60,368 nucleotides of DNA, taken from assembly GCA_964636355.1 (NCBI GenBank), contig CAZWRG010000004.1, positions 1 to 60,368 of the forward strand, in the 5' to 3' direction. How positions within the stretch are numbered: the first letter of the stretch is position 1; each line of letters opens with the position of its first letter. The notes under the pieces were generated by a model. The model ran no database searches. It saw nothing but the letters and a program-made list of their open reading frames with translations, and was not told the origin of the DNA. The position numbers and the translations under genes were made by a program. Shown piece by piece: positions 1 to 53,304 of this stretch. The DNA is from an uncultured Candidatus Saccharibacteria bacterium. GTDB lineage: Bacteria > Patescibacteriota > Saccharimonadia > Saccharimonadales > JAGQNK01.

Positions 1-52
1 CAGGACACCCTGCTTAAAAGGCAGGTGCTCTAACCGGCTGAGCTATGGGCCC
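1..52 (-). tRNA. tRNA-Lys(UUU), 5' portion only (3' part lies left of the window edge)
   Basis: Minus strand reads GGGCCCA TA GCTC AGCCGGTTA GAGC A CCTGC CTTTTAA GCAGG GTGTCCTG. The anticodon loop is CU-UUU-AA. The body is nearly identical to tRNA-Lys(CUU) at 53189. Confidence 0.85.
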
Positions 53-124
53 ATAAATTATATGGGTTTCATCGGTTATCTTATTTTTAATGTTCGCTCT
101 TGTCGTCTTGTTTAGCCGATTAGA

Positions 125-178
125 GCAGGTGCTCGATTGTTATTTTGTAGCTTTGCTACGGGGCTGAGCTATGGGCCC
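125..178 (-). pseudogene. tRNA-Lys 5'-half relic (acceptor 5' strand, D-arm with about 25-nt insertion, anticodon-stem 5' strand; no anticodon loop or T-arm)
   Basis: Minus strand GGGCCCATAGCTCAGCCCC[gtagcaaagctacaaaataacaatc]GAGCACCTGC matches the intact tRNA at 52..1, then diverges. Confidence 0.6.
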
Positions 179-324
179 TCGTCAGCGTGTAACGCTTTGG
201 TAACTAATTTGCTGGCAAAACAAGTTTGCCCAGCAAAAGCAGTTACCAAACCTAGCCGCTTCCTCTCAAAATCCCAAACAGCAGCGAGCTGCTTGGTTTG
301 GTATTTTGGATCATAACTGCAGGG
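179..324 (-). ncRNA. Structured tRNA-leader element, copy A (hairpin 1, AGGA-rich linker, long hairpin 2, ACACGCUGACGA tail)
   Basis: Alignable with the copies at 40320-40470(-) and 53060-53188(+). The stems covary and the apical GCAAACUUGUUUUG is conserved. It abuts the tRNA relic. Confidence 0.5.
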
Positions 325-354
325 AAATTAACTCCTTAAATTATCCTTATTTTT

Positions 355-34103: not shown

Positions 34104-34164
34104 TTTTACTGGATTTTTAGGTCCGAATGGGCTATAATCTCCCTGTTAAATCATTTTATCATCC

Positions 34165-40241: not shown

Positions 40242-40319
40242 TGGGGCGAGTGATGGGATTCAAACCCACGATCTTCTGTGCCACAAACAGACGCTTTAAT
40301 CCGCTAAGCTACACCCGCC
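40242..40319 (-). tRNA. tRNA-His(GUG) with encoded G-1 and CCA
   Basis: Minus strand G-GCGGGTG...anticodon loop TT-GTG-GC...CACTCGC-C-CCA. The T-loop TTTGAAT has U at position 56. Confidence 0.93.
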
Positions 40320-40470
40320 GCGTCACCGTGTAATGGTTAGGTGGCTATTTCGCCAACAAAACGAGTTTGCTTGGCAAAATTACCCACCTATCCAAGCCGG
40401 CTCCTTTTCCGATGTCCAAACAGCAACAAGTTGCTTGGTTTGGTCACCGGCGTTCGGCTACTGAACAGGG
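40320..40470 (-). ncRNA. Structured tRNA-leader element, copy B
   Basis: Same architecture as copies A and C. Hairpin 1 is CCAAACCAAGCAA-CUUG-UUGCUGUUUGG. Hairpin 2 has apex GCAAACUCGUUUUG. The tail ACACGGUGACG abuts tRNA-His. Confidence 0.55.
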
Positions 40471-40473
40471 GTG

Positions 40474-40502
40474 ATTATAGTACAAATTGAGAAAAATTCC
40501 AA
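40474..40502 (-). promoter_or_regulatory. Sigma-70-type promoter driving leader B and tRNA-His
   Basis: Minus strand reads TTGGAA, a 17-nt spacer, TATAAT, then the GC-rich discriminator CACCCCTGTTCAG. Confidence 0.65.
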
Positions 40503-40508
40503 CCATAA

Positions 40509-41003
40509 TTACTCTACTACCAAAAAACCTTCTGACTCATCTCTGTAGTGATGGACTAAATAGTGGCAGTTGTGACATAGCCATATCAGATTAGCGAGGT
40601 CGTTATTTGATCGGTCCTTGTCTTTGTGGTGAACCGCCAGAATTCGCTGGTCACTTGTTAGGCATTTAGAGCAGTTTCGTGCAAGTTTGGAGCGCAATAG
40701 TCGCTGCCGATAGGATGATTCGCCATTTACCCAATTTTTATGGTTTTTGCCAGTGTAAAGCTCGGAGTTCCGCCATTTTGTTTGGCAAGATTTACCGCAA
40801 AAGAATAATTTACTCTTAGATCTTTGCTGGTCAGTCAGCGTTTTGTAAATTCTCTTACCGCACACATGACAAGAACAATACATACCTGTTCGTTGGCCAT
40901 GATGCTGGCATGCCTTAGAGCAAAACCTCCCCCAGCCTTTTAATAAACGGTTAGGTTTGACGTAGAAACTTTTTGAGCATGTTTCACACGATACGTGGGG
41001 CAT
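40509..41003 (-). CDS. HNH endonuclease with duplicated CxxC...CxxxC zinc-ribbon modules
   Basis: AVHHKDKDRSNNDLANLIWLCHNCHYLVHH. Two modules match C..C.K..Y...FC.K.CQ. Confidence 0.8.
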   Translation of the reverse strand: MPHVSCETCSKSFYVKPNRLLKGWGRFCSKACQHHGQRTGMYCSCHVCGKRIYKTLTDQQRSKSKLFFCGKSCQTKWRNSELYTGKNHKNWVNGESSYRQRLLRSKLARNCSKCLTSDQRILAVHHKDKDRSNNDLANLIWLCHNCHYLVHHYRDESEGFLVVE

Positions 41004-42370: not shown

Positions 42371-42447
42371 TGGTACCCCGGGTAGGACTCGAACCTACGA
42401 CCTAATGGTTAGAACCCACTTGCTCTAATCCACTGAGCTACCGGGGC
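42371..42447 (-). tRNA. tRNA-Arg(UCU), CCA encoded
   Basis: Minus strand GCCCCGG TA GCTC AGTGGATTA GAGC A AGTGG GT-TCT-AA CCATT ... TTCGAGT ... CCGGGGT A CCA. Confidence 0.9.
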
Positions 42448-42514
42448 ATACCACTGGCGTATTTTAACAGAAAAACATGCAATTTAACAGAGATATGTTA
42501 TGATAGACTGCGTT

Positions 42515-42589
42515 GCGGGTGTGGTATAACGTTTATTACTCCTGCCTTCCAAGCAGGCAACGCGGGTTAGACTCCCGCCACCCGCACCA
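42515..42589 (+). tRNA. tRNA-Gly(UCC) with a non-canonical D-loop and T-loop, CCA encoded
   Basis: GCGGGTG/CACCCGC acceptor and anticodon loop CT-TCC-AA. The D-loop AACGTTTA has no GG. The T-loop is TTAGACT (A at 56). The variable loop is 4 nt. Confidence 0.75.
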
Positions 42590-51145: not shown

Positions 51146-51273
51146 CAAATAAACAAAGTTCATCATGTCTTTTATTCTAGAGGTCTTTTCACTGGCTGCA
51201 AATGAGTTAAATAAACGTAAGGGTTCAGATAATTACACTGGTGAGGCTGACTAATTGGTATAATAAGCGGCAT

Positions 51274-53028
51274 ATGCAGGAAAATATAAAACGCTTTGCT
51301 TCAATTGAGGCCACTGAGGCTGCGCTCCGAGCTTATGTACCGGTTGTTAAGGAAATAACCGGCAAAGACATTACTTTGCAGCGCATGGAGCCATTAATGG
51401 CAGCGCTTGGTAACCCACAGAATAAACTGAAAATTGTTCACATAGCCGGCACATCCGGTAAAACATCAACTGCATATTATATTGCAAAAATGTTGCAAAG
51501 ACAGGGAAGAAAAGTTGGCTTAACTGTTTCACCGCACATCGATAGTGTAACCGAAAGAGTGCAAATAAACTCTTCTCCAATCAGCGAATGGGAGTTCACA
51601 GATGCGCTTGGTGAATTCTGGGATATTATTGAATCGGTTAGTCCGCAGCCATCGTATTTTGAACTGCTGGCGGCTTTTGCATATTGGTATTTTGAAAAAG
51701 TTGGTGTTGATATTGCAGTTGTAGAAACTGGTTTTGGGGGACTGCACGATGGTACAAATGTAGCCAATAATTCTAACAAAATCTGCGCTATTACAGATAT
51801 CGGGCTCGATCATACGCAGATATTAGGCGAGAGTTTAGATTTAATTGCTGCTCAAAAAGTCGGGATTGTTCATCCCAAAAATACGCTAATTACTTATCAC
51901 CAGTCAGAACAAATTGATGAAATATTTCGTGGACATGCAATGGCAGTTTCAGCGGAGATTTTATTTCAAAATCAAGCTGATTTATTTAGTCGCTACACCA
52001 ACTCTGGGCTTCTGGAGCTCCCAGCGTATCAACAGAGGAATTGGCTACTTGCCAGAATGGTTTGCGAAACCGTTGCAAAAATACACAATCTTGACTTAGA
52101 TGATCAATCAATTCAGGCAAGTTTATCGGTTGATATTCCTGGCCGTATGGACACGCAGACTGTAGACGACCAGATAATTATTATGGACGGGGCGCATAAC
52201 GAACAGAAGAATAATGCTTTTATAGATAGCTTTCAGCAGAAATTCCCTGATCAAAAAGTTCCGCTATTGGTTAGTTTTAAGCAAGATAAAGAGTATCTAA
52301 AGATTCTTCCTTTGCTACGTCAGATTTCAGATGAAATTATCGTGACTTCTTTTGAGGCATTGCAGGATTTACCGGTTAAATCTCAGGATGTGTCGACTTT
52401 AGCTAAAGCGGCTAGGGAGTCCGGCTTTAAATCGGTAATTGAAATAGCGGATAGTCGAGCCGCGTACCAAAAACTTCTTGAAATATCTAACGGCTTAGCG
52501 GTGATTACCGGGTCATTTTACTTGATAGCTCTAGCTAGGTTATACGCACGGCAAAAAGTTGTGCGGGCTATTGCGGCAATTGATGATAATTATGGACTGG
52601 CCGATGACCACGGTATTCCTTGGAGTTTGCCTCTTGATCGCCGCTATACTAAAGAAAAAACCATGGGCGGCGCGCTGCTTATGGGATATAACACCTACAT
52701 AGAATTTGAATCTCCGCTGACAGGGCGGAGAAATTTAGTACTGGTTGATGAAACGCAAGTTTTGCGGGATGGTTTCGAGCCGATTAGAAGTGTAGAGGAA
52801 TTTTTTAAAGAACCGCCGGCCAACCTATGGCTTTTTGGCGGTGCTGGGGCGTTTAGGGAAACACTCGAATATGCTGATGAGCTTTATTTGACGAGAGTTA
52901 AGGGTGATTTTGATTGCACTAAGTTTTTCCCGCCGTTTGAAAAAGATTTTGCATTAGCGTCCAGTAGCAAATCATACACCGAAAACGGAATCAGATTTCA
53001 ATTTGAAATCTGGCGCAGAAAACATTGA
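51274..53028 (+). CDS. folC: Folylpolyglutamate/dihydrofolate synthase (FolC) fused to dihydrofolate reductase (DHFR)
   Basis: Mur-ligase P-loop HIAGTSGKTST. From about aa 445 it reads VVRAIAAIDDNYGLADDHGIPWSLPLDRRYTKEKT...LMGYNTY...LFGGAGAF...LYLTRVKGDFDCTKFFP. TGGTATAAT lies 9 nt before ATG 51274. Confidence 0.85.
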   Translation: MQENIKRFASIEATEAALRAYVPVVKEITGKDITLQRMEPLMAALGNPQNKLKIVHIAGTSGKTSTAYYIAKMLQRQGRKVGLTVSPHIDSVTERVQINSSPISEWEFTDALGEFWDIIESVSPQPSYFELLAAFAYWYFEKVGVDIAVVETGFGGLHDGTNVANNSNKICAITDIGLDHTQILGESLDLIAAQKVGIVHPKNTLITYHQSEQIDEIFRGHAMAVSAEILFQNQADLFSRYTNSGLLELPAYQQRNWLLARMVCETVAKIHNLDLDDQSIQASLSVDIPGRMDTQTVDDQIIIMDGAHNEQKNNAFIDSFQQKFPDQKVPLLVSFKQDKEYLKILPLLRQISDEIIVTSFEALQDLPVKSQDVSTLAKAARESGFKSVIEIADSRAAYQKLLEISNGLAVITGSFYLIALARLYARQKVVRAIAAIDDNYGLADDHGIPWSLPLDRRYTKEKTMGGALLMGYNTYIEFESPLTGRRNLVLVDETQVLRDGFEPIRSVEEFFKEPPANLWLFGGAGAFRETLEYADELYLTRVKGDFDCTKFFPPFEKDFALASSSKSYTENGIRFQFEIWRRKH

Positions 53029-53053
53029 AAAAAACAACAAGTTCTGCTAAAAT
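53025..53053 (+). promoter_or_regulatory. Sigma-70-type promoter driving leader C and tRNA-Lys(CUU)
   Basis: TTGAAA, a 17-nt spacer, TAAAAT, then the discriminator CCCCCTGTTGCAG. The -35 box overlaps the folC stop. Confidence 0.65.
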
Positions 53054-53059
53054 CCCCCT

Positions 53060-53188
53060 GTTGCAGCCAACCAAATTTGCGAGAGGATTCGCAAATTTGA
53101 GAGGAGATGGCTTGTCTTGGGTAGATAGTTCTGCCGAGCAAACTTGTTTTGTCGGCAGAACAGCTACCCAAACATCACACATCGACGA
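53060..53188 (+). ncRNA. Structured tRNA-leader element, copy C
   Basis: Hairpin 1 is CAAATTTGCGA-GAGGAT-TCGCAAATTTG. The linker is AGAGGAGATGGCT. Hairpin 2 is TTGGGTAG..TCTGCCGA-GCAAACTTGTTTTG-TCGGCAGA..CTACCCAA. The tail ACACATCGACGA abuts the tRNA. Confidence 0.6.
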
Positions 53189-53265
53189 GGGTCATTAGCT
53201 CAGCTGGTTAGAGCACCTGCCTCTTAAGCAGGGTGTCCTGGGTTCGAGCCCCAGATGACCCTCCA
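53189..53265 (+). tRNA. tRNA-Lys(CUU), CCA encoded
   Basis: GGGTCAT/ATGACCC acceptor, anticodon loop CT-CTT-AA, T-loop TTCGAGC. Confidence 0.95.
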
Positions 53266-53304
53266 TACTTGTAATATTAGATCCTTTGTGTTATTGTATA
53301 CATC

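Follow-up and report, generated by a model that had tools for sequence, protein, structure and literature searches.

What is the structured RNA that stands directly before tRNA genes in an uncultured Candidatus Saccharibacteria bacterium, and what does it do there? The question is raised by contig CAZWRG010000004.1, a stretch of 60,368 nt (hereafter the window), in which ARAGORN and Rfam identify six complete transfer RNAs (tRNAs) and one cut by the window start. An earlier note on this stretch had described three copies of a two-hairpin element fused to tRNA 5′ ends and had taken it for a functional RNA of no known family. We find that this leader belongs to a real, widespread and strongly covarying RNA family that was previously undescribed. 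Tentatively, we read it as a cis-acting precursor segment that is removed by ribonuclease P (RNase P) and provides a recognition or gating platform for 5′ maturation.

A widespread and covarying RNA family

Three of the seven window tRNAs have the leader. Copy C (53054–53188, plus strand) places its last base directly before tRNA-Lys(CUU) at 53189, and copy B (40320–40473, minus strand) adjoins G-1 (40319) of tRNA-His. Copy A (179–339, minus strand) adjoins a 17-nt fragment that repeats the first bases of tRNA-Lys(UUU) exactly; 126 nt after the first base of this fragment, at position 52, the intact tRNA-Lys(UUU) begins. A pattern combining the apex and tail of the element matches the window three times, against 0.00 matches expected, and the minimum free energies of the three copies give z-scores of -5.9, -5.6 and -4.7 against shuffled sequences. 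A covariance model (R1), built on an alignment (A2) of 75 distinct copies of the 92-nt 3′ domain from the genome scan below, was run over the window with filters off. It recovers these three copies alone, at 100, 94.8 and 91.8 bits, in the places and the tRNA orientation that the earlier note had given; the next-best match (14.9 bits) is the antisense of the leader copies themselves.

The family extends well beyond this contig. The apex and tail pattern, scanned over 185,579 species genomes, yielded 88 loci, about 73 of which have a 50- or 51-nt match and come from metagenome-assembled genomes (MAGs) of Saccharibacteria, Saccharimonadales or Patescibacteria; the remainder, with other match lengths and in other phyla, are taken as chance. 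On 601 kb of loci, R1 returns 85 hits, among them about a dozen copies that had escaped the pattern. Beside this set, selected on apex and tail, a separate metagenome scan was anchored solely on the hairpin-1 loop and the linker, and it finds the full leader in 23 of 25 loci, at 53–107 bits. A scan of viral contigs gave a single match, of the wrong length and taken as chance. A covariance-model search for further homologues had been suggested at the outset, and more than 100 copies beyond the window are now found in Saccharibacteria and Patescibacteria MAGs and in metagenomes.

Among the 114 tRNAs in the pattern-selected loci and the window, 65 have the leader, a sample biased to leaders as the loci were chosen by leader presence. 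The leader-bearing tRNAs comprise 31 anticodon species for 18 amino acids, and no leader among these 114 stood before a Cys or Asn tRNA. Whether a given tRNA species has the leader varies from genome to genome: tRNA-Pro(UGG), tRNA-Arg(UCU) and tRNA-Gly(UCC), leaderless in the window, are leader-bearing elsewhere.

From 5′ to 3′, the leader consists of hairpin 1, which occurs in two forms, an AGGAG linker, a 78-nt bulged hairpin 2 and five unpaired nucleotides, GACGN. In A2, 93.2% of cells are in standard pairs, versus 26–44% when the 3′ partners are slid by 1–3 columns, and 23 of the 28 pairs show changes on both sides. The covariation score is 0.603, versus 0.187 ± 0.008 for column shuffles, a control that is not to be read as a probability; the slid control retains relatedness and is equally clear. 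The earlier proposal of a functional, covarying two-hairpin RNA at tRNA 5′ ends is thereby borne out.

Hairpin 2 is closed by P2a, a covarying 4-bp helix that the earlier note had overlooked and whose two central pairs each occur as four or five standard pair types (for example, CG 32, UA 23, AU 7, GC 7). Above it lies an asymmetric internal loop, 5′ GCU opposite 3′ UYACA, in which all of GCU and several UYACA positions are at least 90% conserved, and conserved unpaired nucleotides surround P2a. The 11-bp P2b, a small internal loop, the 9-bp P2c and the apical AAAC-UU-GUUU follow. This apex had been called invariant and proves to be near-invariant: it is AAAY-UU-RUUU family-wide, with Y and R covarying, as we take to be expected of a CUUG-type loop whose first and last bases pair. 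Variants in the set selected on hairpin 1 and linker are AAAU-UU-AUUU, AAAU-UA-AUUU and AAAC-UA-GUUU. The tail had been described as a conserved ACAC-N2-YGACG; its GACGN part is indeed unpaired, but the N2-Y bases vary because they belong to the 3′ strand of P2a, which covaries (GAUG/CAUC, GCCG/CGGU, AGCG/CGCU).

Among the 38 stems retained by a criterion of at least six consecutive pairs, hairpin 1 in form 1 has an 11-bp stem with conserved closing pairs and a GAGGAU hexaloop, and pairs 3–10 covary. In form 2, an outer stem encloses AAAC-CA-(5-bp hairpin)-GUUU. Among 82 copies, 35 have form 1, 27 form 2 and 6 both, and 14 are left unclassified by the regular expressions. AGGA occurs twice in form-1 leaders (hexaloop and linker) and once in form-2 leaders. 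In the paired columns, G·U outnumbers A·C by 73 to 27; the selected structure is therefore RNA of the tRNA-sense strand.

A riboswitch would join a ligand-binding aptamer to an expression platform with mutually exclusive folds; the leader has the conserved unpaired nucleotides around P2a, and no alternative pairing with covariation support was found for it. A pseudoknot between tail and apex (GACGA with UUGUU) was rejected, as the tail keeps its C in most apex variants that have A at the pairing position. Pairings of the apex with the T-loop, and of hairpin-1 loop GGAUUC with GAAUCC, were set aside by eye, since the T-loops vary without matching change. A pairing of the 5′ GCAGCC with loop GGCU has sides too conserved for a test, and copy A lacks the motif. 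The AUG of a small open reading frame (ORF) after AGGAG is one version of the covarying P2a strand, and the GCU/UYACA loop has no tandem G·A signature of a K-turn or loop E.

Rfam 15 at gathering thresholds reports only tRNAs in the whole window; at E-values up to 10, the region 52950–53300 gives the tRNA and otherwise chance-level matches. On 19 related loci, Rfam finds tRNA, one transfer-messenger RNA (tmRNA) and one group I intron, and leaves the leader unmatched. Searches of full-text papers open without subscription turned up no account, for Saccharibacteria or Patescibacteria, of a tRNA leader that is both structured and conserved. The earlier view that the element matches no known family is supported. 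The leader had also been held not to be a T-box, rightly: there is no RF00230 hit, no U-tract terminator follows hairpin 2, and the downstream gene is a tRNA. T-boxes, too, are structured, tRNA-related leader RNAs of Gram-positive-type bacteria; however, they precede aminoacyl-tRNA synthetase or amino-acid genes, bind tRNA in trans and contain a specifier loop, a T-box sequence and a terminator/antiterminator, none of which is present here.

The junction with RNase P substrates

In about nine of ten copies beside a called tRNA, the position of the leader is exact to the nucleotide. With the tRNA as called by ARAGORN, the last leader base directly precedes +1 in 56 of 63 copies. A one-base offset is seen in three, among them the His copies, whose tRNA encodes G-1; two have a tail 3 nt longer (GACGACGN) that still abuts the tRNA; and at two the ARAGORN tRNA start lies 2 nt earlier than in the abutting cases. 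The final leader base is A in 32 copies, C in 23, U in 7 and G in 1, and all 65 copies beside a called tRNA share its orientation. CCA is encoded in all tRNAs of the loci and the window. Leader-bearing tRNAs are mostly standalone, with another tRNA at most 300 nt upstream in 3 of 65 cases versus 11 of 49 for leaderless tRNAs.

The leader is not restricted to tRNAs. A metagenome locus encodes a tmRNA (L098:1772–2166, minus strand; 68.8 bits in Rfam, missed by ARAGORN) that is preceded by a form-1 hairpin 1, an AGGAG linker (UGAGAGGAG), a different long hairpin and a GACGA abutting G+1. Like tRNAs, tmRNA is matured by RNase P; the common denominator of the leader-bearing genes is therefore an RNase P cleavage site rather than tRNA identity. 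Reduced leaders keep the same end. Hairpin 1 is joined straight to GACGA at L014, ACAC-NN-YGACGN stands alone at L040 and L043, and hairpin 2 is short at L042; these leaders retain the tail beside the tRNA. The leader also has the layout of an RNase P substrate, ending at the mature 5′ end with the five nucleotides GACGN unpaired, where at least four are required: RNase P needs roughly positions -1 to -4 unpaired (PMC7897497).

At one further locus a group I intron (L055:4120–4341, minus strand; 63.4 bits in Rfam) lies within the anticodon loop of a leader-bearing tRNA-Met, and ARAGORN calls no tRNA there because of this interruption.

The element had been described as promoter-equipped, and a sigma-70-like site with 10 of 12 matches does lie directly upstream of each window copy on the correct strand. 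At many loci, however, TAnAAT, then 1–3 nt, then CC(C/T)CTGTT precedes tRNAs with and without a leader. The leaderless ones include tRNA-His, -Thr, -Leu and -Gly in the loci and the window tRNA-Pro, whose signature lies at 34133–34147 (plus strand), as the earlier note had seen; within 120 nt of a leader the arrangement occurs in only 20 of 82 leaders.

One MAG, SMAG_U12547, has at least 15 leader copies, and four of them, before Pro, Met, Leu and Arg tRNAs, are 89–100% identical in the variable columns. Their identical block runs from TGCAGCC, just 5′ of hairpin 1, to the last leader base, and one of the four (L019) has the same hairpin 2 joined to the other hairpin-1 form. These shared edges, together with the promoter at leaderless tRNAs, imply that the promoter is generic and lies outside the copied unit. 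The CCC(C)TGTT start ascribed to the element is likewise present, but it also occurs at leaderless tRNAs and falls outside the copied block; perhaps these genomes typically have such a motif as a GC-rich discriminator or at the start site. Judged from the paralogue alignment, the unit copied or converted is the leader itself, and it is modular. A mobile promoter cassette, one of the roles originally considered, is not favoured because the promoter is not part of what is copied.

The string CTGTTA(T/A)AAT also serves as an extended -10. SMAG_U12547 is labelled 'Candidatus Limnocylindria'; its leaders lie in L005, L013, L015, L019, L050, L054 and L059 and in L065, L067, L071, L084, L085 and L086, on DATHJH01 contigs for which the label or the bin is probably wrong.

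Candidate roles of the leader

What the leader does can be stated less firmly, and computation by itself does not shorten the earlier note's list of possible roles. Under the cis-acting explanation that we tentatively favour, the leader would be transcribed together with its tRNA from the upstream promoter. It folds with a fixed geometry of hairpin 1, AGGAG linker and long bulged hairpin 2 and leaves exactly five unpaired nucleotides (GACGN) before the bond that RNase P would cut. Given such a spacer at the RNase P bond, the whole leader should be released in one piece. The conserved loops and the purine strands around P2a would then give the RNase P holoenzyme, or a dedicated protein, a platform for docking or gating, setting how, or how fast, promoter-proximal tRNAs and tmRNA mature, and duplication or gene conversion would keep the copies of one genome alike. 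We lean towards this role because the invariant spacer, the conserved P2a purine strands and internal loop, the fixed helix lengths and the conserved loops resemble a recognition surface. The family, its fold and strand, the exact junction, the spread over tRNA identities and the copying within genomes are shown; transcription from the upstream promoter, RNase P cleavage and the role in cis are inferred.

Ordinary bacterial pre-tRNA leaders share with this one the location between promoter and +1, a few unpaired nucleotides before the cut and presumed removal by RNase P. They are short or idiosyncratic and are not known to be conserved between tRNAs, whereas here a single fold of about 130 nt with conserved loops is common to 18 amino-acid identities and tmRNA in many MAGs. 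Bacterial tRNA 5′ leaders are generally treated as disposable; a conserved, elaborately folded leader common to tmRNA and to tRNAs of nearly all identities would suggest that the RNase P step is controlled or assisted in a way so far known from a synthetic device only.

That device, the RNase P riboswitch (PMC7897497), is the closest functional analogue. There, too, a structured leader directly precedes a tRNA, and the accessibility of the last 4–5 leader nucleotides decides cleavage, which a closer hairpin gates; the construct is man-made and theophylline-dependent, whereas a ligand, an alternative fold or switching would be hypothetical for the Saccharibacteria leader. The RNase P protein subunit contacts the pre-tRNA leader (PMC7897497). 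The RNase P RNAs of the Candidate Phyla Radiation (CPR) are encoded but reduced, and two thirds of them lack the CCA-binding UGG motif (PMC8172020), so that in this setting the leader could explain substrate recognition or the coordination of tRNA supply in minimal cells. A sharper form of the idea, which we consider rather unlikely, is that the leader is a natural RNase P gate, whose core of AGGAG linker, 4-bp P2a, GCU/UYACA loop and GACGN tail would bind a protein or small ligand and so set the accessibility of the five nucleotides. If so, the maturation of tmRNA and of between a third and a half of the tRNAs would be under post-transcriptional control in Saccharibacteria. On the practical side, the covariance model can annotate more than 100 unexplained intergenic regions and mark tRNA and tmRNA 5′ ends missed by standard tools.

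Several observations weigh against a role in maturation. About half of the sampled tRNAs carry a leader, and the leader is for that reason dispensable for maturation; the +1 base, the discriminator and the encoded CCA are alike in leader-bearing and leaderless tRNAs. RNA runs share only tRNA words with the locus, where the reads cover just the tRNA and come from other organisms. One compost metatranscriptome contig contains a related hairpin 1 but extends 158 nt upstream of it, and it therefore does not establish a start site or exclude DNA. A binding partner of the leader is so far hypothetical, and tblastn with CsrA, Hfq and RnpA gave no hits in the 0.8 Mb of Saccharibacteria loci sampled, which, not being whole genomes, are uninformative. 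Finally, leaders on degenerate tRNA copies and two orphans with no tRNA after the tail (L041:2875–2966 and L073:7169–7260, both minus strand) still score 93–104 bits, and such intact, detached leaders are the chief argument for a function independent of the tRNA.

Such a function is the core of the strongest rival, which we rate as less likely than the cis role: a trans-acting, multi-copy small RNA (sRNA) for which RNase P merely makes the exact 3′ end, the free RNA of about 130 nt using its GGA/AGGAG motifs and conserved apex to bind or titrate a protein or the 30S subunit. Besides that 3′ end, it would account for the many copies per genome, for the two exposed AGGA motifs (GAGGAU hexaloop and linker) and for the intact detached leaders, among which copy A differs from its counterpart L071 by compensatory changes in P2a, P2b and P2c. 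It sits less well with the form-2 loop, which has no GGA (27 copies), with the different hairpin 2 of the tmRNA leader and with reduced leaders in which just the tail beside the tRNA is retained; the failure to find a CsrA-like gene counts for little in so small a sample. Among known RNAs, 3′ETS-leuZ of E. coli is a piece freed from a tRNA precursor by tRNA-processing nucleases, and the leader, if freed likewise, could act in trans. RNAs of that type, which work by base pairing, are individual spacer fragments specific to one species, unlike a multi-copy, structurally conserved 5′ module. CsrB/RsmZ-type sponges are recognised by multiple A(N)GGA motifs in loops, in a genome with a CsrA gene. 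The leader resembles them with one GGA in a hairpin loop and one in a flanking single strand, but it has two motifs only, one hairpin-1 form lacks the loop motif, and no CsrA was identified in the 0.8 Mb sampled.

We give still less credence to a tolerated selfish repeat that would move from one RNase P substrate gene to another, its structure being kept for its own propagation, possibly through RNA; the unit might even copy itself between RNase P substrates by an RNA intermediate bounded by the transcript start and the RNase P cut. The copied block does extend from close to the transcript start as far as the RNase P site. The near-identical copies before four different tRNAs in one MAG, with edges at GCAGCC and tRNA +1, speak for such spread, as do the presence or absence of the leader at the same tRNA by genome, the tandem, truncated and orphan copies, and the recombination of modules seen in L019. 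Gene conversion between existing leaders, however, gives the same block edges, and loops and helix lengths conserved across many MAGs suggest selection at the host level. There is also no transposase or reverse transcriptase nearby and no real match in viral contigs. In the paralogue alignment, the unit ends (5′ ..TGCAGCC and 3′ ..CGACGN) are not, by eye, mutual inverted repeats, and no target-site duplication is apparent. A miniature inverted-repeat transposable element (MITE), which the earlier note had named as a finding that would overturn its reading, or another insertion-sequence-derived repeat is therefore rejected. REP/BIME, Correia/NEMIS, ERIC and MITE repeats are known for many copies, hairpins, intragenomic homogenisation and truncated copies, all of which the leader shares. 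It differs from these intergenic repeats in having no terminal inverted repeats, a fixed orientation and position relative to a processing site, RNA-strand-specific covariation and loops conserved across genera.

A self-cleaving ribozyme making the tRNA 5′ end is highly improbable: conserved unpaired nucleotides do cluster around P2a beside the junction, at an exact distance from it, but hammerhead, twister, pistol, hatchet, HDV-like and hairpin ribozymes give no Rfam match even with permissive filters, self-cleavage would leave a 5′-OH tRNA, the junction survives in deletion variants, there is neither a multi-helix junction nor a supported pseudoknot, and leaderless tRNAs in the same genomes must use RNase P, whose RNA the CPR encode (PMC8172020). 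Equally improbable is an element acting as DNA, be it a palindrome of the REP/BIME type, a folded recombination site resembling attC or an inverted repeat bound by protein. Although hairpin 2 is a long imperfect inverted repeat with a nearly palindromic apex, the 73 G·U against 27 A·C favour one transcribed strand, the orientation is always that of the tRNA with the end at +1 (65 copies so oriented; 56 of 63 ending at -1), and the conserved single-stranded purine segments have no symmetric partner.

Anatomy of the window copies and rearranged relatives

Copy C follows a promoter-like site, TTGAAA-17-TAAAAT with TG before the -10 (53025–53053, plus strand), which is the generic tRNA promoter outside the copied unit. 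Its 5′ segment CCCCCTGTTGCAGCCAAC (53054–53071) comprises the discriminator or start region and the recurrent GCAGCC motif. Hairpin 1 (53072–53099) is of form 1, with the 11-bp stem CAAAUUUGCGA/UCGCAAAUUUG and the GAGGAU hexaloop, and is followed by the purine linker AGAGGA (53100–53105), whose AGGA is at least 90% conserved. Hairpin 2 (53106–53183) contains P2a GAUG/CAUC, the internal loop GCU/UCACA, P2b, P2c and the apex GCAAACUUGUUUUG. The unpaired tail GACGA (53184–53188) provides the final base before +1 of tRNA-Lys(CUU) (53189–53265), which encodes CCA.

Copy B and copy A are on the minus strand. The promoter-like site of copy B is TTGGAA-17-TATAAT (40474–40502), and its hairpin 1 (40409–40450) is of form 2, an outer stem CCGGUG/CAUCGG enclosing CCAAAC-CA-AGCAA-CUUG-UUGCU-GUUUGG. 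Hairpin 2 (40325–40401) has P2a GCCG/CGGU and the apex GCAAACUCGUUUUG, and the tail GACGC (40320–40324) lies against G-1 of tRNA-His (40242–40318). In copy A, a promoter-like site TTGACT-16-GATAAT (340–367) precedes a form-2 hairpin 1 (267–309) whose inner part is near-identical to that of copy B, a hairpin 2 with P2a AGCG/CGCU (184–260) and the tail GACGA (179–183).

The sequence after copy A had been called a tRNA-Lys(UUU) relic. It is a tRNA remnant, but more exactly a degenerate tandem tRNA copy with a conserved structured insert (53–178, minus strand). The 17-nt tRNA-Lys 5′ fragment (178–162) is followed by a hairpin-forming insertion in the D-loop, bases 23–32 and divergent sequence with a new TATAAT 5 nt before the intact tRNA. 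This intact tRNA-Lys(UUU) (1–52, minus strand), which the window end truncates, stands behind a short promoter of its own and has lost its fusion to leader A. Homologous arrangements are kept in two other MAGs (L071 and L076), with both Lys isoacceptors represented, and one hairpin of the insert shows a compensatory change relative to them. Copy A is one of about a dozen leaders followed by a partial tRNA 5′ copy (17 to about 53 nt), a 90–170-nt insert with its own -10 box and the intact tRNA. L071 repeats the order leader, Lys relic and tRNA seen in the window.

Two junctions depart from this order. At the orphan leader L073, an inverted promoter signature (AACAGGGGTAATTGTATCA) directly follows the tail, which suggests that the junction is rearranged. 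A weak leader-like match at L086:5241–5331 (minus strand; 38 bits) has a form-2 hairpin 1, and the sequence after it is a tRNA in reverse complement; this copy has probably been rearranged or is decaying.

A second recurrent structured motif of about 100 nt, with no Rfam hit, runs GG|UGAGAA, a 5-bp hairpin, UUCGCAAGG, a hairpin and GGG|CAAGUCC; its last hairpin has an (A)AACUUGUU(U) apex like that of the leader. It occurs on the plus strand at L001:1093–1215, L029:4019–4131, L031:1468–1585, L056:7498–7600 and L082:6830–6940, and on the minus strand of L035, L056, L062 and L063 at reverse-strand positions 2633, 3136, 1894 and 4218. Degenerate tandem tRNA copies harbour the motif in their T-loop or D-loop; elsewhere it separates a tRNA fragment from the intact tRNA that follows. 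The motif may be a tRNA-targeting insertion element or a tRNA-like RNA.

Two ORFs border window copies. A 595-aa ORF (51241–53028, plus strand) combines Mur-ligase (FolC-like) domains with a C-terminal dihydrofolate reductase domain and stops where the copy C promoter starts. Directly upstream of the copy B promoter lies a 164-aa ORF (40509–41003, minus strand) with a weak HNH_3 endonuclease match (E-value 1.4e-4, under the Pfam cut-off). The leaderless tRNA-Arg(UCU) (minus strand) and tRNA-Gly(UCC) (plus strand) are divergent neighbours at 42371–42589, and the 67 nt between them must contain both promoters.

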